From positions 254,268 through 318,267 of the IMG/VR virus record IMGVR_UViG_3300022902_000004: a stretch of 64,000 nucleotides of DNA. The stretch is one strand, 5' to 3'. Numbering within the stretch: position 1 is the first letter of the stretch; every line of letters starts with the position of its first letter. The translations under genes were made by a program, and so were the position numbers. The DNA comes from a virus. Below are positions 28,900-56,054 of the stretch, in pieces. The notes below the pieces were generated by a model, which saw only the letters and a program-made list of their open reading frames with translations, did no database searches and was not told the origin of the DNA.

Positions 28900-29514
28900 T
28901 TATTCGAACTCGTTGTCCAACGTTCCGCAGTGGATTCGAGTGTGGCATGAACTGCACACTGTCACCAGGTTTTCTACCGTGTTGTTCTTCTTGTTCATGT
29001 CTATATGGTGTACGAACAAAAGGAACTTCGAGCCATCATGGGAACACTTCCTACATTTGTGCCCATCACGACGTTTCACCGTGGTCCTGAGCGTAGTCGT
29101 GAACTCGAAGTCATAATCGGCAGCCCCTTCCTTTTCCCACGACCTGCCGTCAATCCAATGGCTGTTCTTTGGGCCCGAGACTCCTCGACCGATGGCTGCC
29201 CGATGTTCTGCGGTTAGCGGTATTCCTTTTTTCGCTTTACTCAGTTTACGCCTGGTCTCTTCCGAAACAGTTTTACCTAGGTGTGCTGCTGCAATGGCTT
29301 TTGACGCGCATTCAGGCGTGCAGCATTTGTTTTGACGCAGTTTGTCAGAACGCCTAACTTCGAACCCCTCTTTGCACCACACGCATATTTTCGTTGAGAC
29401 CTTTCCTTTCTTGTCTTTTGCGCCCCATCTTTTCAGGTTTGCACAAGTTTTAGAACAAAACCGACGTCCTTTGTTTACCACCTCAATGTTGCATCCAATA
29501 AATTCGCACTTCAT
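28900..29514 (-). CDS. HNH homing endonuclease with NUMOD3-like repeats
   Basis: C-terminal HHIDMNKKNNTVENLVTVCSSCHTRIH. Repeats ETRRKLSKAKKG and EHRAAIGRG. GGAGGA RBS. Confidence 0.8.
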   Translation of the reverse strand: MKCEFIGCNIEVVNKGRRFCSKTCANLKRWGAKDKKGKVSTKICVWCKEGFEVRRSDKLRQNKCCTPECASKAIAAAHLGKTVSEETRRKLSKAKKGIPLTAEHRAAIGRGVSGPKNSHWIDGRSWEKEGAADYDFEFTTTLRTTVKRRDGHKCRKCSHDGSKFLLFVHHIDMNKKNNTVENLVTVCSSCHTRIHCGTLDNEFE

Positions 29515-33446: not shown

Positions 33447-33857
33447 CTAAATTGTCATATCGATCTTGATGTAGTTGTTGGGAATGACGTGTTTGAGAAG
33501 CGTCCGGCAAGGCTCAGGGATCGCCCTGGCCACATGAGACGTTATCGGCAGTTCAAATTCCATTCCCGGGTACGGCTTGCATTTGTGTGTATCCAGTAGC
33601 TCACTGGCAATTGAACGTACCATACCATCCGGATCCGATTCGGCAATCGTTGTCATCATTGCTCTGATATCAATATCATTCATGAATTTTGCCATTCCAT
33701 ATAACGCCCCTTCTCGAACATATGATTTCTCATGGTGCAACGCTGGGCAACATATCTTCAACATGTATTCTTTACTTACCTTTGCCGATTCCTCTGCCTC
33801 AAATGATAGAGCGACCGGATTCGCGAAGATGGCTGTAAGATCCTTTGTTTCTTTCAT
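33447..33857 (-). CDS. hypothetical helical-repeat protein
   Basis: Trimmed to MKETKDLTAIF; ATGA overlap. Confidence 0.5.
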   Translation of the reverse strand: MKETKDLTAIFANPVALSFEAEESAKVSKEYMLKICCPALHHEKSYVREGALYGMAKFMNDIDIRAMMTTIAESDPDGMVRSIASELLDTHKCKPYPGMEFELPITSHVARAIPEPCRTLLKHVIPNNYIKIDMTI

Positions 33858-34600
33858 GGGTTCACCTCGATACAAAATCCTGGGTCATGTGCAGCAATCG
33901 CTAGGTCTTCATACCCGACGTATCCTCGAGGGTTCGAAACAATACGAGTCTCGCCAAGCATGTAATCGTTATGAGTATGCGTATGCCCATGAATCCATGC
34001 AGCAGGCGCTTTGTCCAAAATCAACCCAGACATGTCACAAACATAAAACATATTCTGCCACGACATTGGCCCGGACTTGTAGTCAGGATGGATGCTCAAA
34101 TCGCATGGAAGGTGATGTGTTACAACGACATCACCTTTCTTAACTTCATTCCTCAGGTACCCTCGAGTCGTGCTGTTTGCCTTGTAGATCCAATGGGATG
34201 CGCCTTTGATACGCTTAAAATCTGACCATGCTCTTTCGTACAATTGTGCCAAGCCGTCGCCCTTAAACCACATTGTGTTGCCAAGGAACCTAATGCCATC
34301 GATTTCGACGGCTGAATCAAGCAACCAATGAAAGTTTGAAAACTTTGCAGCCAGTTCTTCCATCGCAGCCTTGACAACATGGTACCCTTTTGCACCCCAG
34401 TATTCGTGGTTGCCTGTGACGTAGACGACGTGCGGAAACTTTTCACATGCAAATGCCAGGTTCTCGGTCAAGTAACCTGCTGTTCCCAGGTCACCGGCGA
34501 TGACGAGCACATCCCCATTCACTGGAATGTTTTTCCAGAATGCCTTGCCTCTGTCTGGGTGAAATTCAGTGTGCACGTCACTGATGATTTGAATCTTCAT
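33854..34600 (-). CDS. calcineurin-like metallophosphoesterase
   Basis: ISDVHTEF ... GDLG ... GNHE ... GHTH motifs. Trimmed to MKIQIISDVH. Confidence 0.75.
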   Translation of the reverse strand: MKIQIISDVHTEFHPDRGKAFWKNIPVNGDVLVIAGDLGTAGYLTENLAFACEKFPHVVYVTGNHEYWGAKGYHVVKAAMEELAAKFSNFHWLLDSAVEIDGIRFLGNTMWFKGDGLAQLYERAWSDFKRIKGASHWIYKANSTTRGYLRNEVKKGDVVVTHHLPCDLSIHPDYKSGPMSWQNMFYVCDMSGLILDKAPAAWIHGHTHTHNDYMLGETRIVSNPRGYVGYEDLAIAAHDPGFCIEVNP

Positions 34601-34660
34601 TTGTCTTCCTTCCATGGTCGTCCCGACCAATACGTTTATTATACCACAAATTCGTGTTTC

Positions 34661-35357: not shown

Positions 35358-36095
35358 TTACACAGAGGAACCAAGAAACCTGAGCACACCCGATTTTATT
35401 GATGCAACGGATGAATCGAACGCCGCCTCAGACGCGTCGATGTAGAAAAAGTTCTCTTTGAACAGTTTTTCGTATGCCTCTCTGTTCCTTTCAACAGCTT
35501 TCCAAGACCGAATGACGTCCTCTTCATCCACACCTCGGCCACCTTGGGCAGCTCGGTTCACGTTCCTGGCCAACGACACTTCCAATGGAACATCGACATA
35601 AATCATGCCGACTTCATATCCAGCATTAGCAAACTCTTTGAACTGTTTTGAAATCTCTCTGTAGTTGCCACCGGTACCGTCAATCAAAACATTATCGCCG
35701 GTGCCCATGAGTGACTTTTTTAGGTGCTTGGCTGCATTGCGTGCCCGGGAGAACAGCGTCATATTCTGACTGAAGATGGCCCTGAGTCGACGGTATTCTG
35801 GCTCTGCATCGGACATTGCCTGTTCGTCACCAACTCCCTGGGCTTCCAAGAATGTTGCCTTGGCCAATTTGTATTCTTCAAGTAAGTCCTTTCTATCAAG
35901 CGGGATACCTGCCTTCTTGAGCGCCGCCTCATAATCGTCGTCCGGGTTGACTACAGTTAGCTGGCTTCCAATACCAAGTTTTCTAATTGCTGTTGATTTT
36001 CCAGATGCAGGTCCGCCGGCCATGAAAATAGCAGAAGGTTTGGCTTGGAGTGCCTCCCGGAGAACCCGTCGAATATATTGTCGTAGCATTTTCAT
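35358..36095 (-). CDS. P-loop nucleoside/polynucleotide kinase-like protein with CTS-like leader
   Basis: AIFMAGGPASGKSTAIRKLG Walker A; N-terminal MKMLRQYIRRVLRE. Confidence 0.65.
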   Translation of the reverse strand: MKMLRQYIRRVLREALQAKPSAIFMAGGPASGKSTAIRKLGIGSQLTVVNPDDDYEAALKKAGIPLDRKDLLEEYKLAKATFLEAQGVGDEQAMSDAEPEYRRLRAIFSQNMTLFSRARNAAKHLKKSLMGTGDNVLIDGTGGNYREISKQFKEFANAGYEVGMIYVDVPLEVSLARNVNRAAQGGRGVDEEDVIRSWKAVERNREAYEKLFKENFFYIDASEAAFDSSVASIKSGVLRFLGSSV

Positions 36096-36748
36096 AGGTC
36101 CACGTTTGCGTTTGTAATAAGCTTCCCAGCGACGCTCAGGGCACCAATCGTTGGGGTACCACTGGCATAGTATGCCTTGGACAATGAGCTGTTCAGGTAT
36201 TTCTGTTGCTCAGCTTTGCGCTTCTTTTCATCGTTGTGGAAAAGGCCCCACCAATTTGTTTGCATGTCGGCGTCGTCATCTGGTGTTTCTGTTTCGTGGT
36301 GGTCATAATCAGGCCGAAAGTCGAACTGTTTCTTTTCGATGTCATCACGGTTGTTCATGTAAAAGTTCCACACGTTGGTGGCATCCGGTGAGACAGAGGC
36401 TCTATCAGGTGTGAGCCCGAAGCCTTTCATACCAAGACGCTCCATGACAACATCATACAGCATCGGTCCCCAACTATGAGCTGCTTTGTGGCCAGTATTG
36501 ACCCGAGCAAGAATGACAGAATATGCTTTCATTTTCTTGGCGACTTCATCACCTGGTAGCAACTTTGCCGCCACAAACCCATTGATGTCGTCGCCTCGAT
36601 TGAATCGCTTGCCATCTTTGTCACAGTAAAATGCCCGGATGAAATCGCTGGCTTCAACAATCTTGACGTGCACTTCATCCGGCAGGTCATTCGGTCCTTT
36701 GGCAGATTCAGTCAGAACTTGCCTGACATAATTTTGTAATACGTTCAT
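36092..36748 (-). CDS. paralog family F protein (SWGPMLYDVVME motif) with CTS-like leader
   Basis: Trimmed to MNVLQNYVRQVLTE. Shares motif with 56845..57369 and 58853..59479. Confidence 0.55.
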   Translation of the reverse strand: MNVLQNYVRQVLTESAKGPNDLPDEVHVKIVEASDFIRAFYCDKDGKRFNRGDDINGFVAAKLLPGDEVAKKMKAYSVILARVNTGHKAAHSWGPMLYDVVMERLGMKGFGLTPDRASVSPDATNVWNFYMNNRDDIEKKQFDFRPDYDHHETETPDDDADMQTNWWGLFHNDEKKRKAEQQKYLNSSLSKAYYASGTPTIGALSVAGKLITNANVDL

Positions 36749-38499
36749 CACACATTTCCCATCATAATCTTCAGATGTTTCGCGCCTGACTTGCCAATTT
36801 TCCGGTAGTACCAACCATCTGAATCCGGCCCGAAGTTTCTGTTTGGGTGTGGTCCCAGCCATTCGATTGGTTTCTTGAGGATGGCACGAACCTTGGCTTC
36901 ATCTGTCACAGCGTTCACGCCTGCTTTGAATGCAAGCCATGCAGGTGCACCAGACGTCTCGACGAAGGTACCTTTCCTCTTCAGTAAGTCAAACATATGT
37001 TGAGATGTTGGGTTCTTGCCATCTGCACCATCATGCCCGCGACCACCGATCTTGAGGCGACCGTCTTTGTACTTGCCAAAAATGACACCGTCGGGTTGCG
37101 GATCTTCATCCACATCAACGGTATCGAAGAACTCGTAACCACCTGGTAAATCCTCAGGCTTTTTGATTTTGAGGTTGCCACCGATTGGGGCATATGCGGT
37201 TGAAATCAGGTCGAGAACCTCATCATCGATATCAACTTCTTTCCTGTGTACTGCGAGTTCTTCAGCAGGTACATCTTCCCATTTATTTTTAGGTACGCCC
37301 ATATCTGCGAACGTCTTTTCTAGCAGAATGTTCATACGAAGAAACGATTCAGTCAATGACTTGAACACGTCCACCTCAGCAGAGTGCATCGCCTGTCCAA
37401 TCTGGGGACCCTTCAATCCTTTTGCCATTAGTTCCTGTGGTCGGAGTGTTGGGGACCTCTGGACGAACTCCAGGAACCCTTGAACGAACTTCTCGGGCAT
37501 ACCGACTGCCAACGCAAACTCTTCCAGCTTTTCCGGAGGAACCCTAAGTCGCTTGAATTCTTTCTTCAATTTTGGTGAAGTGGACGCAACAATTCCAGGC
37601 AGATTCAATAGGAACTGAACCATCCCGGCCTCGTCGCTTGTGTACTTCATCTTCCGTAGGACCTTGGCAACTGCGCCCGGGTCGTTCCCCCAAAGAAGAA
37701 GGGCAACCTGAACATCGAAATGTTTCGAAGCAGGTGCTGCGTCGACTTCAAGTCCTGGGAAAATCTGTGGCCACAAACCTAGGTCACCAATGAGCCCCAG
37801 AAGGTGCTGCCCGTCGATTGCTGACTTGACTGCCTTAGCAAACTCGTCATGAATACGTTCTGGCGACACGCCTGATAGGTCGTTGTCTCGCTTGATTGCT
37901 GAGGCAGTTGTTTCATCCAAGTCGGAGCCTAGACGAGCAGCGAACCTGACAGCCCGCAGAATACGAAGCTTGTCCTCCCTAAATCGAAGGGCAGGATCAC
38001 CGACAGCGCGGATGACTCCATTCTTTACGTCCTCAATACCGCCAACGTAGTCGACCACCTCACCGGTTGTCAAGTCGTAGAAGAGAGCATTGATTGTAAG
38101 GTCACGACGGTTTACATCGTCCTCGATTGTAGTGAACTCAACAGAGTCAGGACGTCGGCCTTCACCAATGTCATTTCTGAACGTTGCAATTTCGTATTCC
38201 TCACCACCGACAGTTCGAACCCGAACAACGCCAAACGCCTTGCCAGTTAGATCGATGCGATGTGATGGGTCCTTTGAAACAATGTCGATGACACGTTGTG
38301 GTTCGGCACCTGTTGCAAGGTCGTAGTCCTTCGGGATTTTCCCGAGGAGTGTATCCCTGACGGCACCACCAACAACGTATAGCTCCTCACCAGCCTCCAT
38401 GAAGGCATCCAGGATCCCGCCCAAATCGGCAGGAGTCTGCAGGTGCATTTTCATTTTGATTGGGGCACGGTCCAGCATTTCAAGAATGTTTTGTTGCAT
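36748..38499 (-). CDS. cca: tRNA nucleotidyltransferase (CCA-adding enzyme / polyA polymerase family), 583 aa
   Basis: YVVGGAVRDTLLGKIPKDYDLAT head-domain signature. Long C-terminal extension. Confidence 0.8.
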   Translation of the reverse strand: MQQNILEMLDRAPIKMKMHLQTPADLGGILDAFMEAGEELYVVGGAVRDTLLGKIPKDYDLATGAEPQRVIDIVSKDPSHRIDLTGKAFGVVRVRTVGGEEYEIATFRNDIGEGRRPDSVEFTTIEDDVNRRDLTINALFYDLTTGEVVDYVGGIEDVKNGVIRAVGDPALRFREDKLRILRAVRFAARLGSDLDETTASAIKRDNDLSGVSPERIHDEFAKAVKSAIDGQHLLGLIGDLGLWPQIFPGLEVDAAPASKHFDVQVALLLWGNDPGAVAKVLRKMKYTSDEAGMVQFLLNLPGIVASTSPKLKKEFKRLRVPPEKLEEFALAVGMPEKFVQGFLEFVQRSPTLRPQELMAKGLKGPQIGQAMHSAEVDVFKSLTESFLRMNILLEKTFADMGVPKNKWEDVPAEELAVHRKEVDIDDEVLDLISTAYAPIGGNLKIKKPEDLPGGYEFFDTVDVDEDPQPDGVIFGKYKDGRLKIGGRGHDGADGKNPTSQHMFDLLKRKGTFVETSGAPAWLAFKAGVNAVTDEAKVRAILKKPIEWLGPHPNRNFGPDSDGWYYRKIGKSGAKHLKIMMGNV

Positions 38500-42467: not shown

Positions 42468-43148
42468 TTCGCAAAGATATTTATATGTATAAAGAGTTAT
42501 TACGTTTATCGTATTATTAACAAGCTGAATGGGCGATTTTATATCGGCGTTAGAACCTGCAAAGGAAATATTCATACAGATTCATACATGGGATCAGGTT
42601 CTGCGATTGGATTAGCTATCAAAAAATATGGAAAGGAAAACTTTGCTAAGGTTATAATGTCGCAACATGAAACCCGCAATGAAGCATTGCTTGCTGAGGC
42701 TTTGTATGTTCCGCAAGAGTTGGTCGACGATTCAATATGTTACAATCTTTGCCAAGGTGGTCTCGGCGGTGAAGGATATTCCCCTTCTGTTGAAACACGA
42801 AAGAAACTTAGCAACGCATTGAAAGGTCACCTTGTCTCTATTGAAACACGAAAGAAAATCGCCAAATCATTGACAGGTGGAACTAGATCACTTGAATCTC
42901 GACAAAAAATGCGCGAACGAGCCTTACAAAGAGAACCCATATCAGATGCTACTCGTCAAAAAATGAGTGCAGCAAAGAAAAAGCAAGCAAGAACGCCGGC
43001 TGCACGCAAAAGAGTAAGTTTGTCTACCATTGGAAGACTTTGGTGGAACAATGGCACCCAAAATAAGTTTTGTAAAGATTGCCCGGGTGATGAATATGTC
43101 CGCGGCCGAATCAAATGGGCCAAATCACTTGATAAGAAGCCTATCTAA
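42468..43148 (+). CDS. GIY-YIG homing endonuclease with NUMOD3 repeats; no canonical ATG at the expected start
   Basis: In-frame KSYYVYRIINKLNGRFYIGV (GIY-YIG) precedes the first ATG. Repeats ETRKKLSNALKG, ETRKKIAKSLTG, ESRQKMRERA. AT-rich island. Confidence 0.6.
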   Translation, partial: FAKIFICIKSYYVYRIINKLNGRFYIGVRTCKGNIHTDSYMGSGSAIGLAIKKYGKENFAKVIMSQHETRNEALLAEALYVPQELVDDSICYNLCQGGLGGEGYSPSVETRKKLSNALKGHLVSIETRKKIAKSLTGGTRSLESRQKMRERALQREPISDATRQKMSAAKKKQARTPAARKRVSLSTIGRLWWNNGTQNKFCKDCPGDEYVRGRIKWAKSLDKKPI

Positions 43149-43995: not shown

Positions 43996-44856
43996 CTAAA
44001 TAGGCTCACGCTTAGCGCGCTTAGACCTATTTGGCATACTGTTTCTGCCCATAACCCATCCGACGCGAATGTTGCTTTCAACATCATCAATTGGAACCAA
44101 TTTATTGGCACCATCTTTTTTCATCCATTTTCTTGCTTTGGCAAATTGTGTTCGGCCCGGCTTCCAGCCTTTTTTCAAGTATTCATCAAACAACATGTTT
44201 TGTATTTGCTTGTTTACACCATTTTTACAAACCCATTTAAACGTTTTGCCAAAGTTAGGATTGTTTTCGCCAGTCATTAAATCAGATTGGCGTTGTTTTT
44301 GTTCGTTTGTTCTGGTCGTTCCAAACATCCCGTTCTTTTCGCCCATTAAAGATGCTGATCGTCTTGCAAGCATCACAATTTGTAATTCGTCTGCTTTTTC
44401 TTTGCCATATTTTTCAAGCCATACATCATAGCATCCGCGACCACGCATTCCATGGTTTTTTGATATTAATCGTTTCGTTTTTTCTGTGTGTTTTCTACCA
44501 TAAAAAGGGTTTCCTGTTCCACGAAATGAATCGGCAATTTCATTCAATGCAATATGCTTTTCATGATCAGATGCCAGATGTTGCACACCAAATCGCATTA
44601 ATGCAAAAACCATTTTTGATTTTTCAATGCCGACTAACATTTTTGTTAACAATCTATGAACTGCATAATGCTCAAGCACGGTTAACAAAACAAGATTTTC
44701 ACAGTCGTCGGTGCCACCTAATGATTTCGGTAAAATGTGATGATTATGATAATTGGCTACATCACTTCTTCGTCGACATGAGAGTTTTGCACTTTTAATT
44801 ATTTCATAATATTGGTGCGTTGAATCGTTATCAATAAACATTTTTGTTCGTCGCAT
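43996..44856 (-). CDS. HNH homing endonuclease with NUMOD-like repeats
   Basis: HHILPKSLGGTDDCENLVLLTVLEH; repeats NPFYGRKHTEKTKRLIS and NGMFGTTRTNEQKQRQS. Confidence 0.8.
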   Translation of the reverse strand: MRRTKMFIDNDSTHQYYEIIKSAKLSCRRRSDVANYHNHHILPKSLGGTDDCENLVLLTVLEHYAVHRLLTKMLVGIEKSKMVFALMRFGVQHLASDHEKHIALNEIADSFRGTGNPFYGRKHTEKTKRLISKNHGMRGRGCYDVWLEKYGKEKADELQIVMLARRSASLMGEKNGMFGTTRTNEQKQRQSDLMTGENNPNFGKTFKWVCKNGVNKQIQNMLFDEYLKKGWKPGRTQFAKARKWMKKDGANKLVPIDDVESNIRVGWVMGRNSMPNRSKRAKREPI

Positions 44857-44920: not shown

Positions 44921-45334
44921 TTAAATTGTCCCGTCACCATCGAAAAATGCCATGAGGCGTTTATTGTATGCACCGAATGGGCCGTTGTTAACCCAGGAAA
45001 CTGGAACCCAGGCAACCCAGCCTTCTTTCTTCAGGCGGATGCCTCGAAACTTGACAGGAACACGGCACTTATAGAAGTGCGACCTCTCGCGGTATGCTAC
45101 ATGACTGACGTACGGTTTTTGGAGTAAATCCAATGTGCTCAGCATGATTCCTGTTTCTTCGTACAGCTCTCTGACAGCGGCATAAATCGCATACTCACCG
45201 TCTTCGATCTTACCTCCTGGCAAGCCCCACTTGGTGCTGAAGATTCCCCGGGTTACTCCTAGAACGTAGTCTTCCTTTGTTGGATGGTAAATCAAGACAC
45301 CTGCGCTTTCCAGCGGTCGTCGTTTGTTTTTCAT
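44921..45334 (-). CDS. Nudix hydrolase
   Basis: Nudix box GLPGGKIEDGEYAIYAAVRELYEETG. Trimmed to MKNKRRP with a GAGAGGATGA RBS. Confidence 0.8.
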   Translation of the reverse strand: MKNKRRPLESAGVLIYHPTKEDYVLGVTRGIFSTKWGLPGGKIEDGEYAIYAAVRELYEETGIMLSTLDLLQKPYVSHVAYRERSHFYKCRVPVKFRGIRLKKEGWVAWVPVSWVNNGPFGAYNKRLMAFFDGDGTI

Positions 45335-45350: not shown

Positions 45351-45440
45351 TGGTGTACCCGCCCGGAGTCGAACCGGGGTGTTGAACGCTTCAATTTCAT
45401 GTCATTCACAAGGTTATCCGGTTCTTCTCAACCGGCAAGT
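45351..45440 (-). tRNA. tRNA-like element (canonical T-arm and ACCA 3' end; 5' half not foldable by eye) - possibly degenerate
   Basis: Minus strand ...CCCGGTTCGACTCCGGGCGGGTACACCA-3'. No matching acceptor 5' strand found. Followed by ~350 nt without ORFs. Confidence 0.3.
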
Positions 45441-45787
45441 CTGCCTATAAAACACCCGTCCCGTTCTAGACACTGGGACCCACCTGGCGAGCCAGGGAAC
45501 CATTTAGCAACCATTTTTATCTCAATGCGGTAAAACATCCAGCCAATTTTGGGTATCAAGGTAGTTGGCCACCTCGCAATTATGCAGCTTGTGCGTAAGA
45601 GTACTCCGAGTTATCGTTAGCAATTATCATTTCAGCGTTTTTACGAAGCCGCGCTGCCCTTCGCCTTGCACATTCAATATTATTCGCCCAATCGAAACCA
45701 GTTCGGGCACATTGTTTGTCAAATTCTCCTATGTTCAGCGACGTTTCATCGCCCTCAATATAAGTATAATCATTTTGCGAAAGATGT

Positions 45788-46420
45788 TCACAGGCCTAGC
45801 TTCTTCAAGCGAGAGATTGTGTCCTTACTCTGTCCAGTTACATGCAGGATTGCGATTCCTCCTGCTTCCTGCCACTCCTTGATTGTTCGAGGTTTGTCGT
45901 CAATCAAAACATTCGGCACACCATCAGTTGTAGCGTAATTCTGCTTTGCAGCAGCCCTCGTGCAGATAACCTCCTTTGCTTCTGGGCTCAAATTCGAGCG
46001 GGCCCAGACGACCTTTCCAGATTCAGCAGAAGTGCCAGAGCGGTGAGAAATGCCAGCAGTAAGCAATCGAACAGTTCGGCCACGTGTGACCAGGAATGGC
46101 CAAAGCAACTCAACTCCGTCAGCCTGCTTTCCAAGTCCTGCGAACCATGCACCCGGGTCCCGGCCAATCAGGAAAAACATCAAATTACGAACCGACTTGT
46201 AATTCAAGTCATCCTCAGTCGATGTCCTGAAATCTGGACCCAGCTCCTTCAGCACCTTTCGGTATGCTCGTGCCTGCCCGACACTCAGGAACTCCTTCTC
46301 AACACTCGATGCGTTGTCCAAGAATTTATTCACATCGGCGATTGCAGTCGATACAAAATCAACGATCACTCCGTCCATGTCACAGTAAATATCAGACCTA
46401 GTATCCAGCTTCACACTCAT
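45788..46420 (-). CDS. HAD-superfamily 5'(3')-deoxyribonucleotidase-like protein
   Basis: CDMDGVIVDF motif I; ~210 aa. Confidence 0.65.
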   Translation of the reverse strand: MSVKLDTRSDIYCDMDGVIVDFVSTAIADVNKFLDNASSVEKEFLSVGQARAYRKVLKELGPDFRTSTEDDLNYKSVRNLMFFLIGRDPGAWFAGLGKQADGVELLWPFLVTRGRTVRLLTAGISHRSGTSAESGKVVWARSNLSPEAKEVICTRAAAKQNYATTDGVPNVLIDDKPRTIKEWQEAGGIAILHVTGQSKDTISRLKKLGL

Positions 46421-47303: not shown

Positions 47304-48320
47304 TTATATCTCCAAAGGTGATGCCGACCAAATGATCTCATTCAATGACTGACTGCATGATTGGCGCAAAAACTCCCCAACGATAAACTTGAAAGTGTGA
47401 AATTCCTTAATCACAGTAATGAGCTGCCCGTCCTTGTAAAGATTGAAGACACCGACCTCCTCGAAGACATCGCTTTTGTTCATTATCAACGTGTTGACAC
47501 CATTTACGTTTACTGCCTTGATAAGGTTGTCGACGTCCAGCCAATTTGTCTGTCGTGGACGTCCCGTAGTAGCTCCAAACTCGTTGCCAACCTTTTGCAG
47601 TTCATACAACGCAGGCTCTTTACCCTGAAACGCCTTGGCACCGACGTATGTTTCGTATGGCTTGGCCACACCGTACACCTTCTTGATTGCCTGCGGTGGG
47701 ATGCCCGCCATGACAGCTCCGGCGGTGGTGCAGGTTGCAGACGTGACGTATGGATAGTCTCCCCAGTCGACATCGAGATAGAAGCCTTGGGCTCCCTCCA
47801 TTAGGACATTGACATCGGCCTCATTTGTATGAAGTTCCTTGTATTCGTCAATCAAGTAAAGCCCGAGACGCCAGTCTTCCTCAGCACATGTGCCAACACG
47901 ACTGACCTTATCACGATACGCAGGACCATTCCCTGTCTTGGTCGTACCGATTCGGGATTCACCTGCTTCCTCTTCGACATGTTCGGGTGTCACCAAGTGT
48001 GCCTTTTCAGATACACGGAGAAGATCAACCATCTCAATTCCAGCAGCCGCAAGCTCAGATATTTCATTCATCAGCTTTTTGGTGTCGACAACACAGCCTC
48101 GACCAATAATCGATTTCAGCCCGCGGAACACACCGGCTGGCACCAGGTGGGTGACAAATTTCTTCCCTTCGTGGTAGATTGTGTGGCCTGCGTTGGAGCC
48201 TCCACTGAATCGCATGACATGGGTATAGTTTCCCTTCTTCGCCAGCGAATGAACAACCTTTCCTTTGCCGCAGTCGCCACTTTGGCAGTCTACAACAACA
48301 TCTGCTGATAGTTTACTCAT
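47304..48320 (-). CDS. purA: adenylosuccinate synthetase family protein, short archaeal-type (PurA or PurZ)
   Basis: QSGDCGKGKVV and GGSNAGHT P-loop signatures; TKTGNGPAY; YLDVDWGDYPYVTS; GTTGRPRQTNWLD. 338 aa. Confidence 0.85.
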   Translation of the reverse strand: MSKLSADVVVDCQSGDCGKGKVVHSLAKKGNYTHVMRFSGGSNAGHTIYHEGKKFVTHLVPAGVFRGLKSIIGRGCVVDTKKLMNEISELAAAGIEMVDLLRVSEKAHLVTPEHVEEEAGESRIGTTKTGNGPAYRDKVSRVGTCAEEDWRLGLYLIDEYKELHTNEADVNVLMEGAQGFYLDVDWGDYPYVTSATCTTAGAVMAGIPPQAIKKVYGVAKPYETYVGAKAFQGKEPALYELQKVGNEFGATTGRPRQTNWLDVDNLIKAVNVNGVNTLIMNKSDVFEEVGVFNLYKDGQLITVIKEFHTFKFIVGEFLRQSCSQSLNEIIWSASPLEI

Positions 48321-48328
48321 TTTTTCCT

Positions 48329-49213
48329 TTATAAGATTTGTTTGAAATCGTTTATGTCAATTTGTTTTTTCGCGTTTCGCTTGTTTATAATAAAACAAAA
48401 CGTTTTGTTGTTCAGTTTACAATAATCTGTTGCCGCGGCGTTCTTTGCCATGACTTTATCTTTTTGTTTGTCATACCAATATGTGCTTTTTATTTCGACA
48501 AGCTTATTTCCATTTGTTGTTTCAACTTCAAAATCTACAAAATAATGATGAATGGTACCATTATATGCGTATTTTATTGTCGGCCCATTATGGACACGAA
48601 TATTATTACTTTCACAAAATTGAACAAATTTTTGTTCATATGATCCTTGCACCGCAATCGTGTCATCAAATTTTGTAACATAGCGTTTTGACAATGCCCG
48701 GCCACCTCCATTGCATGCTGCCCGATTTGCTATTTCATTATCATGCATTACATTTTCAACGCCATATCGTTCCATAACGACCTTTTTTATTTTTTCTTTG
48801 ATTTCTTGAGACTGTCCGGGATATTCTACACCGTAATTTTTTAGCATTGTTTGCTTTTTCTTTTCTTTGACTTCTTGAGCCTGTGATGGGTTTTCAACAC
48901 CATACTTTTCTAAATTGCTAGCAATGATTCTTTTTTTGATTTGTTTTGCAGCAAAGACATTCTTAACGCCATATCGGTCTAAAGTCGTTTGCTTTCTTTT
49001 CTCGTTAGCTTGACTTGCTTTCGCCTTAATCGACTTTCCTGATCTTTGGCGGCGTCCTGGGTTTGCATCGCAGCACGCTCGCGAGCAAAAATGATAATTT
49101 GCGCTCATACAAGCTTTTCTATACATTCTTTTGAATTTTATGTTGCATGTTTCACATTGCAGTAGCAATGTACGTTTTGGTGGGGCAGTCTTGTGTAGTA
49201 TTTTTATGAACAT
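48329..49213 (-). CDS. homing-endonuclease-like protein: zinc ribbon, tandem YGVxNP repeats, PD-(D/E)xK-like C-terminus
   Basis: Repeats YGVKNVFAAK, YGVENPSQAQ, YGVEYPGQSQ, YGVENVMHD. HYFVDFEVETTNGNKLVEIKS. Strongly AT-rich island. Confidence 0.65.
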   Translation of the reverse strand: MFIKILHKTAPPKRTLLLQCETCNIKFKRMYRKACMSANYHFCSRACCDANPGRRQRSGKSIKAKASQANEKRKQTTLDRYGVKNVFAAKQIKKRIIASNLEKYGVENPSQAQEVKEKKKQTMLKNYGVEYPGQSQEIKEKIKKVVMERYGVENVMHDNEIANRAACNGGGRALSKRYVTKFDDTIAVQGSYEQKFVQFCESNNIRVHNGPTIKYAYNGTIHHYFVDFEVETTNGNKLVEIKSTYWYDKQKDKVMAKNAAATDYCKLNNKTFCFIINKRNAKKQIDINDFKQIL

Positions 49214-51557: not shown

Positions 51558-52967
51558 TTAACCCCACGTGTTCTTGCGGACTTCGTCCAGCGTGTAATCC
51601 TGTGTCACCTCACCATCCTCAAACACCGTCTCGAGCAGGTCAGCATCTGATGCCGAAGACTCCGGAACGGTCATGATTTTATTTCCGTCTCTACCTGTCA
51701 TTGCAACCAAGGCATGTCGGCCCGGCTTCGAGCGCTTACCTGGAGCATCAATCGGATCCTTGAACACGTCTCGGCCTTCACCATTTACGCTAATCCAAGA
51801 ACACTTGAATGCAAACTTCTGGGTGTCACGGTTCATCTTCTGGAGCAAGGCTCCTCCTGACCCGAATGCGATATTATCGGCACTCCAACCAGCAGCCATG
51901 ATTGCATCAAGAATCTGGGAAATCACAAAGCGGTCAACTCCATCCCCTTGGATGATACGCACGTGAGGATCTAAGACCTTGTAACCTTTCTTGTTGGTGG
52001 TAAATCCAAAGGCCTCCCCAAGACGCTCCAGACACTCCAGGACAACACTCTGTGGGTCTCCTGAGTCCGGCCGTACGACCAGCGTTCCATCTCGAGCCAG
52101 GATTTCTGCTTTCAGTTCCTGACCCCACAATTCTGAGCACGCTTTGTAAATGTCGTAGCTATCTGAAACGCATGCAACCAGTCCGGTTGGGTATTGCTCC
52201 AGCATGTTTCGAAAGGCATTGACCTCGCCTTCCTTTCCCCACGATGTAATTGTCGAGTGCTCACTGGCTGGAATGCTGAATCCTGCCATTTGAGTGTTGT
52301 AGTGGTTCCTGGCCAATACCAAGGCTGCCACCGTATCTGTTCCCATGAAGTTGACAAGGTGACCGAAGCCACCGATGCCTGCAGTTTCAACAGACGACAC
52401 ACCACGGAAACCGAAGTCGTGCAGTTTGAAGTAGATGCCTGCTGGTGTTCCGGATTTCTCCAGTGCCGCAGCAATAATCAACCGGCTGGCCCGACTAATC
52501 GTTGCCACGGTGCACGGGTACCAAACCTGAACCAGCAAGGTCTCGAGGTAATTGGTCAACCACCAACACTTCGGGTCTGTATTCTCAATCGTCAACATCA
52601 CGTTGTGGGTCGGAACAACTGTTCCTTCCCTGACCGCTTTGATTCTGACGGGCAACCGCCCATCATGCTCATTGAGAATGTGCTCCCAGCCTTCTCGGTT
52701 GAAACACGTATCGTTGCCGAAATGCAGATGGAAGAATTCCTCTGCTTCGTCGATGCGTTCCTGTGTTACGACCTGTCCCTCGAGGTATTCCTGCAAGAAG
52801 TACTGCAGTCCCACGAAGACAACATCGTCGAATTCACCGCCGCGACTCTCAAAGTAGGAGTAAACGGTCTCAGTTCCCTCAGGATATTGCTTGGAATGTG
52901 ATACCTTGTATGAATCTGTCATCAAGATAATGTTTTTTGGATCGATGTTCTTGTTGTAGTAGCTCAT
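51558..52967 (-). CDS. nadV: nicotinamide phosphoribosyltransferase (NAMPT)
   Basis: 469 aa with NAPRTase-family motifs (GTDTVA..., FGFRGVSS). AAGAGGTGAAAGC RBS. Confidence 0.85.
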   Translation of the reverse strand: MSYYNKNIDPKNIILMTDSYKVSHSKQYPEGTETVYSYFESRGGEFDDVVFVGLQYFLQEYLEGQVVTQERIDEAEEFFHLHFGNDTCFNREGWEHILNEHDGRLPVRIKAVREGTVVPTHNVMLTIENTDPKCWWLTNYLETLLVQVWYPCTVATISRASRLIIAAALEKSGTPAGIYFKLHDFGFRGVSSVETAGIGGFGHLVNFMGTDTVAALVLARNHYNTQMAGFSIPASEHSTITSWGKEGEVNAFRNMLEQYPTGLVACVSDSYDIYKACSELWGQELKAEILARDGTLVVRPDSGDPQSVVLECLERLGEAFGFTTNKKGYKVLDPHVRIIQGDGVDRFVISQILDAIMAAGWSADNIAFGSGGALLQKMNRDTQKFAFKCSWISVNGEGRDVFKDPIDAPGKRSKPGRHALVAMTGRDGNKIMTVPESSASDADLLETVFEDGEVTQDYTLDEVRKNTWG

Positions 52968-53968
52968 GCTTTCACCTCTTTCTTCGATGTGATCTTCACT
53001 TTCTTCGGGGACAGTCTTGTACGTTCCTTTGGCATGTTTTTTTCAATGTGCTCCACTAGTGCATTGCAAAGCGGAACGTGCTCATCGCAAACGAAATTTG
53101 AAATCGTTGACGGCAAAACATCCAGTCCACACTTAAGCCTTTCGATTTTGACCCATTCGACTTCGTACAAATCATCTGTCGCCTCAATGGGTCCCCACAA
53201 GTACACACCGGTGAAAAACACAGTCGTGATTTTATCCTGACGTCTTCGATAGCGCCAGTCGTCGATAACGAAAGAGCCAATGTATTTGAGTGGCTTGCTC
53301 ACCTCAATGTTCCCACCGGTTTCCTCGTTGAATTCTCGGAGAGCTCCTTGCTCATGGGTTTCTCCGGGCTGCAAAAAGCCGCCAGGGAACCGTAGCTTGG
53401 CACCTTCATACTTACGACCCATCAAGACTTCATTCGTCTTGTAGTTGATGACAGCCATGTCGGTCGTGCCATACGCAGTCGGGTAACGATTGTATGAACC
53501 GTAAATGACACCGCGGCGGAAGTCGATTGAACCGTTGGCACGTAGTGCTGCTTCGGCTCGAACCTGTGTTCCGCTGATGTAAATCTTCTGCTCCAACTCA
53601 ACGGTTGGGAAGACACCATGGTATCGCAACATGAAGCTGTCTCGGCTACCGTAAAGGGTAACATCTCCAACAGGACACACTTCTCGAATCTTCTTGTCTA
53701 AGAGGGCAGACCAGGGCTTGTCGAATTCTTGGTCTGAAATTGGTAGAACAATAATCTCAGGGTACTTTTCCTGAATCATCTTTTTTCGTAGATCGTAATC
53801 CAGTGGATTCCTTTTGTCTCCCAAACCGGGACAAATCCCGAGGAACACGATCACTTTGTTGTGGGTCTCAGCCACTTCATCCAGAACACCAACGTGTCCT
53901 GCATGCAACTCCGGAATCTGAAATCTCCCGACCACGACTCCAATCTCACGCTTTTTATTATCACTCAT
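52964..53968 (-). CDS. natV: bifunctional NMN adenylyltransferase / Nudix ADP-ribose pyrophosphatase
   Basis: N-terminal GRFQIPELHAGH nucleotidyltransferase motif; C-terminal Nudix box GGFLQPGETHEQGALREFNEETG. ATGA overlap with nadV. Confidence 0.85.
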   Translation of the reverse strand: MSDNKKREIGVVVGRFQIPELHAGHVGVLDEVAETHNKVIVFLGICPGLGDKRNPLDYDLRKKMIQEKYPEIIVLPISDQEFDKPWSALLDKKIREVCPVGDVTLYGSRDSFMLRYHGVFPTVELEQKIYISGTQVRAEAALRANGSIDFRRGVIYGSYNRYPTAYGTTDMAVINYKTNEVLMGRKYEGAKLRFPGGFLQPGETHEQGALREFNEETGGNIEVSKPLKYIGSFVIDDWRYRRRQDKITTVFFTGVYLWGPIEATDDLYEVEWVKIERLKCGLDVLPSTISNFVCDEHVPLCNALVEHIEKNMPKERTRLSPKKVKITSKKEVKA

Positions 53969-55148: not shown

Positions 55149-56054
55149 TTACTTATCTCCCCATGATTTTGTTCGCAAGTGAATCGAGAACAGCTTTGCA
55201 GCTCGAGCACCAATTGCTTTCCTTACCTCTCGGGTTGGCTCAAACTCGCCTTCACCTTCGATCATGACATCTTCGATCATTGCAGGAATGATTTTCTGCA
55301 TGTCAGCGTAACCCACATCTTGCGGGAACTTGTCAAGCACATGCTCCAGGCGCATATCGGTAACCCACTCTTCAGCAATTGCTTGGGCGCCATTCAGCTT
55401 CTTCCTTGCATCGGGATCCAAGATGGTGTCACCTTTCGATGCCCGCTCAGAAAACTCAGCAGTCTTGTGTTTTGCCATCAGTCGCTTACCGCTCGGCATT
55501 GCAACCTCTTCGATTGGCCGGAGCACGACACCTTCAGATACTTTATCCTCGATGATACCTCGGCGTTTGGCAACCCGAGACGGTTTATCTCGTTCAATCG
55601 TGACTGCCGCAAGGTTGGCTGGGATCCGTTCATATGGAACGAACTCAAGCCCAAACTTAAGGACAAACTCTTCAGCCCGAGGAACAGGCAACCATTCATT
55701 GCCGAGTTTGACTTCAAATGCGATGAAGAGTAGTTTTGGTCCATATGTGTGCGACATTTTCTGTTGAGCGCCGCCATATGCCTCACCGAAAATGGTTACA
55801 TCAGCATGCCCAAGCTCGTGAAAGATGTCAATGAGTCCTTGCTGATAAAACAAGTCGGTGAACTCTTGATGCTTCGACCCGCCAGAAAAGAATCGCAATA
55901 CGGCATTGTTCTTATTCTTCGGTGTCTTGTTGGTATAACGGATATGTGCCGATGTGCCATGAACTTTCTCCATGGCATAACACTCCTTGAAAAGCAGGAT
56001 GTTTTGGTCTTTGTATAGATTTGAGATCTTGGCGTATCCAATAATGTCCCCCAC
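55149..56054 (-). CDS. rnl2: RNA ligase, Rnl2 family (probable GTG start)
   Basis: Motif I EKVHGTS (T4 Rnl2 KIHGTN). ~300 aa. Confidence 0.75.
   Translation of the reverse strand: MGDIIGYAKISNLYKDQNILLFKECYAMEKVHGTSAHIRYTNKTPKNKNNAVLRFFSGGSKHQEFTDLFYQQGLIDIFHELGHADVTIFGEAYGGAQQKMSHTYGPKLLFIAFEVKLGNEWLPVPRAEEFVLKFGLEFVPYERIPANLAAVTIERDKPSRVAKRRGIIEDKVSEGVVLRPIEEVAMPSGKRLMAKHKTAEFSERASKGDTILDPDARKKLNGAQAIAEEWVTDMRLEHVLDKFPQDVGYADMQKIIPAMIEDVMIEGEGEFEPTREVRKAIGARAAKLFSIHLRTKSWGDK

Follow-up and report, generated by a model that had tools for sequence, protein, structure and literature searches.

The window analysed here is a stretch of 64,000 nucleotides (nt) of viral DNA, positions 254,268 to 318,267 of the IMG/VR virus record IMGVR_UViG_3300022902_000004, and coordinates given below without a contig name refer to it. 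An earlier note, made from the letters of the sequence, had drawn attention to positions 45351-45787, where the minus strand was said to carry a near-canonical T-arm, the 3' strand of an acceptor stem, a discriminator nucleotide and an encoded CCA immediately upstream of the ribosome-binding site of a Nudix gene. We read all of these at 45351-45378, where the minus-strand 3' end is ...CCCGGTTCGACTCCGGGCGGGTACACCA, and the match is far beyond chance. They belong to a complete one-piece transfer-messenger RNA (tmRNA, ssrA) gene of 360 nt, including the encoded CCA, which ARAGORN and Rfam both place at 45351-45710 on the minus strand. In the 64-kb window ARAGORN called a single RNA gene, this tmRNA with the tag peptide ANDNSEYSYAQAA, and the Rfam scan returned one family above threshold, RF00023 (tmRNA), which scored 92 bits where the gathering score is 47 (E = 1.8e-34). 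The RF00023 match is untruncated (model positions 1-374 of 374) and its coordinates are identical to those from ARAGORN. Both searches had been proposed in the earlier note, and the covariance-model hit on which it had made its idea of a stable RNA depend was obtained. The order of elements is that of a standard one-piece tmRNA, with a 5' acceptor strand, a first pseudoknot (PK1), the tag reading frame, further pseudoknots, the T-arm and a 3' acceptor strand. A two-piece (circularly permuted) tmRNA was ruled out, as the tRNA-like 3' half is not encoded upstream of the tag half. Judging from the sequence, it is near certain that 45351-45710 is a tmRNA gene. The apparent orphan tRNA fragment and the long non-coding gap next to it turn out to be a single ordinary gene, which corrects how this locus is annotated.

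The complementary 5' acceptor strand, which had not been found earlier, is GTGCCCG at 45704-45710. It lies 350 nt upstream of the 3' strand and forms seven pairs with it, including G3·U70, so that the "non-coding 350 nt" are the body of the tmRNA. The proposal that the T-arm could be the tRNA-like 3' tail of a larger structured RNA was essentially correct, with the tmRNA as that RNA. The idea that 45440-45787 encodes this RNA holds as far as 45710, the end of the RNA gene, and fails for 45711-45787, a leader and promoter-like region outside the mature RNA. Also at odds with the earlier description, in which no open reading frame (ORF) exceeded 16 codons, the longest complete ATG ORF on the minus strand within 45351-45787 has 36 codons, or 43 with a TTG start. 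These ORFs are too short to argue for a protein gene.

The canonical T-arm, acceptor 3' strand and CCA could also belong to a degenerate tRNA or to a tRNA-like element unrelated to tmRNA. A tRNA-Phe had been suggested by a possible Phe (GAA) anticodon stem-loop. ARAGORN found no tRNA gene in the whole 64-kb window and Rfam returned no tRNA match there, the two acceptor strands are 350 nt apart with tmRNA architecture between them, an anticodon arm is not part of a tmRNA, and the RNA carries G3·U70, the identity element for alanine. We regard a degenerate tRNA as extremely unlikely. Minimum-free-energy folding of the 360 nt was uninformative (z = -0.94), as expected for a pseudoknotted RNA. Seven more copies that are 100% identical to the window tmRNA were found in metagenomes from different samples, so the unusual features of this RNA, described below, are not assembly errors.

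A pattern search for tags of the type ANDNxEYxYAxAA found 52 marine metagenome contigs, of which 41 carry a tmRNA that ARAGORN can call, and 10 IMG/VR viral contigs. A search of 185,579 species genomes of bacteria and archaea gave no match to the pattern. This broader pattern was needed, as two lineage-specific tag patterns matched only one contig in IMG/VR, that of a sister phage, and the exact 25-nt 3' end of the tmRNA had no match in IMG/VR. With the window and sister copies included, at least 39 different one-piece tmRNAs belong to the family, on contigs of marine phages (L014-L065 and L097-L105, from marine metagenomes and IMG/VR). These are about 68% identical to one another and form one clade in a rough neighbour-joining tree. 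One-piece tmRNAs known from marine phages are still few, and this family adds to them.

To evaluate selection for structure, we counted covariation formally over 46 pairs in eight helices of the 39-sequence alignment, with 3' partners slid by 1-3 columns and 500 shuffles as controls. In the alignment 95.1% of cells pair, compared with 33-50% when the partners are slid, and 34 of the 46 pairs have changed on both sides. The covariation score was 0.487 versus 0.04-0.11 for slid partners, and none of the 500 shuffles reached any of the observed measures. RNAalifold predicted 57 pairs from the same 39 sequences, 36 of them with compensatory double changes. The T-loop, the D-loop GG and UCGA are invariant across the family, and the architecture of PK1, PK2 and a PK3-type pseudoknot is kept while the stem sequences vary widely.

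Positions in the RNA were counted from its 5' end and the coordinates were checked against the sequence; all elements lie on the minus strand. The 5' acceptor strand GUGCCCG (nt 1-7, 45704-45710, with G3 at 45708) pairs with the 3' strand CGGGUAC (nt 350-356, 45355-45361, with the equivalent of U70 at 45357), and the third of the seven pairs is G·U. In the family alignment pairing of this helix reaches 98.2%, four of its seven pairs show changes in both partners, and all 39 sequences have G·U at G3·U70. The 3' acceptor strand is followed by the discriminator A357 (45354) and the encoded CCA (C358-C359-A360, 45351-45353), both read directly from the sequence. A D-loop analogue, AACUGGUUUCGA (nt 8-19, 45692-45703), was recognised from family conservation, with G12, G13, U16, C17, G18 and A19 invariant in the 39 members. 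Helix P2a, supported by the pair map and by covariation, is formed by UUGGGCGA (nt 20-27, 45684-45691) and GCGUUCAA (nt 322-329, 45382-45389). Here 94.6% of cells are paired and seven of eight pairs have changed on both sides; one of the pairs is C-G in 38 of the 39 sequences and U20-A329 in the window copy. The 5' strand of upper P2 (nt 38-46, 45665-45673) contains a conserved GUGCAAG and pairs within nt 299-312 (45399-45412), with 96-99% of cells paired in its two helices (helices 3 and 4). Taken together, helices 2-4 of P2 are 94-99% paired and have 11 covarying pairs. The T-arm, CCCGG-UUCGACU-CCGGG (nt 333-349, 45362-45378), has a 5-base-pair stem and a conserved 7-nt loop, and its stem is paired in 100% of cells with four of five pairs changed on both sides.

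About a quarter of the family members have no full encoded CCA (for example ...CUCCA followed by CUUUU). This was seen in L016, L017, L022, L024, L029, L037, L040, L046, L054 and L064, and the tmRNA of L052 is cut at the contig end. Members with no full encoded CCA would need a CCA-adding enzyme.

The mRNA-like domain begins with PK1 (nt 47-78, 45633-45664), which has GCGAAG/CUUCGU as stem 1 and CAGCG/CGCUG as stem 2 and ends 11 nt ahead of the resume codon. In a per-sequence search for H-type pseudoknots, only 0.26% of shuffled regions reached the score of the window PK1, and PK1 was detected in 37 of the 39 members, among which stem 1 has 9 different sequences and stem 2 has 21. The frame-setting nucleotides U85 and A86 (45625-45626; numbering as in Escherichia coli tmRNA) precede the resume codon GCU (nt 90, 45619-45621), and U85, A86 and the GC of the resume codon are invariant in all 39 members. 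The tag reading frame, identified with ARAGORN and by translation, has no start codon. It occupies 45580-45621, ends at nt 131 and consists of 13 codons, ANDNSEYSYAQAA, followed by the stop codon UAA at 45580-45582. This frame is conserved in the family and most members encode ANDNVEY(D/N/E)YALAA. The changes V5S, D8S and L11Q are confined to the sub-lineage of the window, in which the tag ends in AQAA and not ALAA.

Downstream of the tag, PK2 (nt 135-170, 45541-45576) was read from the sequence, with CGAGGU/ACCUUG as stem 1 and GGCCAA/UUGGCU as stem 2. All six pairs of its stem 2 (helix 5) have changed on both sides, and the search detected a pseudoknot here in 31 of the 39 members, with 12 variants of stem 1 and 15 of stem 2. 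A PK3-type pseudoknot follows at nt 232-269 (45442-45479), with stems GUCCC/GGGAC and UGUCUA/UAGGCA; 36 of 39 members have a pseudoknot in this region, with 30 stem-1 and 21 stem-2 variants. Within the last pseudoknot region, covariation also supports a hairpin, CCGGUUGAGAAGAACCGG (nt 276-293, 45418-45435; helix 7), in which six of six pairs have changed on both sides and G-C has become A-U between the window and sister copies. When a strict home-made finder was applied to the window copy alone, the search for PK2-PK4 gave no significant result in the shuffle test, and PK2 was missed because the finder over-extends stem 1. PK2 and one PK3-type pseudoknot are supported by architecture and covariation, and nt 171-231 with the hairpin at nt 276-293 gave no third downstream pseudoknot. 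On the sequence data, the RNA has all hallmarks of a one-piece tmRNA that could be tested except the exact number of downstream pseudoknots.

The sister phage contig in IMG/VR encodes a tmRNA that has the same tag and is 93% identical to the window copy. For the comparison, 45351-45710 was set against L013:9625-9984 (also L051 and L043). The two RNAs have no indels relative to each other. Of 10 predicted pairs in which they differ, 7 are changed in both partners and still pair. The differences are distributed unevenly. The tRNA-like domain is only 68% identical and holds 23 of the 27 substitutions, compared with 98.6% identity for the 288-nt interior (PK1, tag, PK2-4), 76-81% for the flanking genes and 79% for the leader. 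This inverted pattern of conservation could possibly come from gene conversion of the interior, from extreme constraint on the interior, or from adaptive change of the tRNA-like domain. The acceptor stem has been rebuilt in the window copy, where U2-A71, C4-G69 and C5-G68 are all compensated changes. The window copy is alone among the 39 in starting with GUG instead of GGG, and it has C330 where the family has a near-invariant G.

An unusual acceptor stem and an Rfam score of 92 bits, lower than the 113.8 bits of the sister copy, might be taken as signs of decay in a non-functional tmRNA pseudogene acquired from a host. Decay is difficult to reconcile with the lack of indels relative to the sister, the compensation of 7 of 10 differing pairs, the strong covariation across the family, the seven identical copies from different samples and an interior that is better conserved than the neighbouring protein genes. 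We consider a pseudogene highly improbable.

A different possibility is that the RNA is functional and has been repurposed, with the rebuilt tRNA-like domain and the AQAA tag giving this lineage an altered activity. Examples would be tagging without degradation by ClpXP, use of another protease or adaptor, tuning to another SmpB or alanyl-tRNA synthetase, or competition with the host tmRNA. This idea draws on U2-A71, C4-G69 and C330, which occur in the window copy alone among 39, on the restriction of V5S, D8S and L11Q to the tag of the window sub-lineage, on the 68% identity of the tRNA-like domain to the sister against 98.6% for the interior and 76-81% for the flanking genes, and on a 13-residue tag type that was not found in the bacterial genomes searched. 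However, the canonical determinants are all retained (G3·U70, A73, CCA, T-loop, U85/A86, PK1 and the Ala-Ala C-terminus). In addition, the sister copies combine the AQAA tag with a conventional GGG... acceptor stem, which indicates that the change in the tag and the change in the stem are not coupled. Altered activity of this kind seems unlikely to us.

In a broader form, marine large phages would keep a tmRNA clade of their own, marked by a 13-residue tag that is specific to phages, and the tmRNA would have been re-engineered in the window lineage. We hold this only tentatively and think it doubtful. In this reading the tRNA-like domain changes more quickly than the genes around it, and the interior hardly changes at all. 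If re-engineering did occur, it could be an arms-race or host-switch adaptation of the interface for charging and SmpB, or else the tag may evade or redirect proteolysis by the host, which would let the phage decide what becomes of rescued proteins and not simply rescue ribosomes. The window and sister copies provide a natural experiment in which the same interior is joined to different tRNA-like domains.

The surroundings of the tmRNA are those of a phage. In the window, mostly small ORFs follow closely on one another on the minus strand, and some have PHROG matches. Those to which a name could be given have functions typical of phages and include a GH25 endolysin with a peptidoglycan-binding domain, several HNH/NUMOD3 homing endonucleases, an enzyme of the GMP-reductase/IMPDH family, a MoxR-type ATPase and a VWA/metallopeptidase-like (DUF2201) protein. 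The PurA-like protein and the CCA-adding enzyme of the window have their best matches in uncultured megaphages of 595-735 kb. The same gene order occurs in at least 23 metagenome contigs, and synteny with the sister phage covers both flanks, over more than 15 kb, at 80-88% protein identity. Other family members adjoin T4-type tail-fibre/baseplate genes and PhoH, and the longest family contig is 176 kb. The tmRNA locus and the surrounding 20 kb had no DNA-level match in 50,697 deposited phage records. The window comes from a large uncultured marine tailed phage and the tmRNA gene is phage-borne.

These data also bear on the idea that a prophage or genomic island has its junction here, in a bacterial ssrA gene or in a 3' fragment of one (an attP/attB remnant). 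It is well established that ssrA is a target for integration (see also PMC9004378), and it was only the 3' part that was recognised in the first reading, where a recombination remnant was one of the options. The gene is full length, with all functional elements present and its stem changes compensated, and both flanks are phage-like and syntenic with the sister phage over more than 15 kb. Of the window ORFs large enough to encode an integrase, none was identified as one, and no bacterial core or housekeeping genes were seen in the window. Moreover, the tag pattern is absent from the 185,579 species genomes and the nearest bacterial tmRNAs are only about 50% identical. An integration junction is, in our judgement, very unlikely.

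Those bacterial tmRNAs were found with a looser tag pattern. They come from metagenome-assembled genomes of Myxococcota, with the tag ANDNVEYALAA, and from Desulfovibrionales, with ANDNYEYA(L/M)AA. They share the context of the resume codon and the start of the tag, ANDN-x-EY, with the phage family, but their tags have 11 residues, two fewer than in the phage family (...EY-DY-ALAA), and the RNAs are only ~47-51% identical to those of the phages. We considered these groups as recent donors and rejected this on the basis of the low identity, the 11-residue tags and the separate clade formed by the phage family. The sequence comparisons indicate that the gene has long been present in this phage group and was not recently acquired from any bacterium sampled so far.

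Compared with the tmRNA of E. coli and RF00023, the window RNA has the same length (~360 nt), alanine-type ends (G3·U70, A73, CCA, T-arm), PK1, U85/A86 and a resume codon at nt 90, and likewise a short start-less ORF that ends in Ala-Ala and UAA and is followed by downstream pseudoknots. It differs from a standard tmRNA in being carried by a phage, in starting with GUG and not GGG, and in its 13-residue tag that ends in AQAA and not ALAA. Identity to E. coli tmRNA, which serves as a rough outgroup only, is ~45%.

Phage tmRNAs are already documented, and the window gene is a further example that can be detected with standard tools. Complete tmRNA genes have been described in huge phages (PMC7162821), including phage G (PMC12484599), and in about 2.3% of isolate phage genomes (PMC9004378). 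The huge-phage genes resemble that of the window in being complete and in belonging to very large genomes that have other translation-related genes as well (PMC7162821; PMC12484599). Some huge phages also encode SmpB, whereas none was found in the window and its related loci, and the tag of phage G, AKLNITNNELQVA, differs from that of the window (PMC12484599). The OM43 phage Melnitz and pelagimyophages likewise carry complete ssrA genes that are marine and phage-borne, and their tmRNAs are thought to maintain hijacked translation or to tag host proteins (PMC9004378). By contrast, these are two-piece tmRNAs of the alphaproteobacterial type, some with a glutamine riboswitch, and the window tmRNA is one-piece (PMC9004378). 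According to the same study, marine phages account for only 2.5% of one-piece phage tmRNAs, and such forms are reported as rare in marine isolates (PMC9004378). We found no paper in the searchable literature with the tag sequences of the present family.

Upstream of the tmRNA, a consensus scan identified a sigma-70-like promoter candidate on the minus strand at 45763-45790, with TGAACA (45785-45790), a 16-nt spacer and TATACT (45763-45768). Both hexamers are kept in all three lineage variants even though the leader is only 79% identical. On these sequence features the promoter is a candidate only. A few nt past the predicted transcription start, in the putative 5' precursor, the leader contains the hairpin GGCGA-UGAAACG-UCGCU (45737-45753, minus strand), read from the sequence. 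The three lineage variants keep its 5-base-pair stem and 7-nt loop with compensatory changes (GGCGA/UCGCU, GGUGG/CUACC and GGUGA/UCACC), and the hairpin may be a stabilising or processing element. The window lineage has its own upstream block of ~90 nt before the tmRNA; in most other family members the tmRNA starts within a few nt of a protein stop codon. On the other side, the Nudix ATG is at 45334, 16 nt downstream of the tmRNA and behind the ribosome-binding site GAGAGGA. A scan for terminators between the tmRNA and the Nudix gene was at chance level and gave none.

An RNA-repair-like set of genes, all on the minus strand, encodes a calcineurin-type phosphoesterase, a zeta/AAA_33-type kinase, a tRNA nucleotidyltransferase (CCA-adding enzyme, 36748-38499) and an RNA ligase; the set is located at 33854-34630, 35358-36095, 36748-38499 and 55149-56054. 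The combination of these genes with the tmRNA suggests maintenance of the translation apparatus against RNA damage.

Together, these data make it very probable that the gene encodes a functional one-piece phage tmRNA that acts in trans-translation. Transcription would start at the promoter-like element just upstream and include a leader of ~45 nt; because there is no terminator before the Nudix gene, the transcript may read through into it. RNase P would then trim the 5' end by cutting after U-1, which would remove the leader. At the 3' end the CCA is already encoded, and the CCA-adding enzyme of the phage could repair it. Since the ends pair with G3·U70 and carry A73, the alanyl-tRNA synthetase of the host should charge the RNA with alanine. 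The role of G3·U70 in alanylation and that of U85/A86 in frame selection are established tmRNA biology. SmpB, presumably that of the host, and EF-Tu would deliver the charged tmRNA to ribosomes that have stalled, with an empty A site, on mRNAs that are broken or have no stop codon; there U85/A86 and PK1, elements that are seen in the sequence, would position the GCU resume codon at nt 90. The ribosome would switch template, append (A)ANDNSEYSYAQAA, terminate at UAA and be recycled. Its role would be to sustain ribosome rescue in infected cells, where cleavage of mRNA yields non-stop messages and the supply of host tmRNA may fall. Possible sources of cleavage include host shut-off, nucleases and defences that cleave anticodons or mRNA. 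This putative rescue role fits the presence of genes for RNA repair and maintenance of translation in the window, as well as the literature (PMC7162821; PMC9004378). It implies that AANDNSEYSYAQAA-tagged peptides would be present during infection, and what a phage gains from its own tmRNA becomes testable, whether this is ribosome rescue, countering of RNA-cleaving defences or steering of proteolysis.

Several points weigh against this reading. All function of the window tmRNA is deduced from its sequence and from established tmRNA biology. The window copy departs from the 38 other members, with U2-A71 for G-C, C4-G69, C5-G68 and C330. Pairs 2:71 and 4:69 make a modest contribution to alanine identity in E. 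coli, so charging of the window tmRNA could be weaker. Position -3 of the tag is Gln where Leu is usual (AQAA versus ALAA). The Leu of LAA matters for recognition by ClpX in E. coli, and the proteolysis step may therefore differ for an AQAA tag. The promoter scan was at chance level by itself, with 1 site found and 0.9 expected. Lastly, no SmpB was detected in the window or in related loci, and the host SmpB may or may not fit this RNA. A tblastn search with an SmpB query, confirmed by a score of 194 bits to PF01668, gave nothing better than E of about 1 in the 64-kb window and nothing at E ≤ 1e-3 in 105 related loci (687 kb in total). With no phage SmpB in these sequences, the RNA would depend on that of the host.

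Other features of the region were also recorded. A 520-residue protein (62172-63734, minus strand) has a major-vault-protein shoulder and repeat domains and a weak SPFH/band-7 match, with no PHROG match. A short adenylosuccinate-synthetase homologue of 338 residues (47304-48320, minus strand) matches a PHROG annotated as PurZ-like. The idea of a 2-aminoadenine (Z) genome was rejected because this PurA-like gene is closer to canonical PurA (E = 5e-54) than to PurZ (5e-20 to 4e-16). An NAD salvage pair, NAMPT and an NMNAT-Nudix fusion (51558-53968, minus strand), is conserved in the sister phage. The sister phage also has, between the PurA-like gene and the block with a nucleotidase gene and the tmRNA, a gene for a 446-residue protein with TROVE (Ro60-like) and VWA domains (L013:6094-7434, also L001:3805-5145), and the window is without it at this place. 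No Y-RNA-like Rfam match was seen in L001 at the gathering threshold.

Elsewhere in the family, the tmRNA has neighbours that encode a PrkA-type kinase, Hsp70/DnaK and weak tubulin/FtsZ-like proteins, the last below the Pfam threshold (L018:7469-9397, L048:8005-9144, L019:6219-7259 and L058:3011-4846). This gene content is typical of very large phages. In some relatives (L058:6652-7636 and L032:53-867) the tmRNA is part of a tight tRNA array with spacers of a few nt, in the order Lys, tmRNA, Asn, Thr, Ala, Gly, Pro, Ser.

Homing-endonuclease-like ORFs (HNH/NUMOD3 and DUF7487/TnsA-like) vary in presence between the window and the sister phage. They were found in the window at 43996-44856, 28900-29514 and 48329-49213 on the minus strand and at 42588-43148 on the plus strand, and in the sister at L013:8894-9517. 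An HNH/NUMOD3 ORF after the Nudix gene is seen in the window only, and an unannotated 207-residue ORF on the opposite strand, between the nucleotidase gene and the tmRNA leader, is seen in the sister only.

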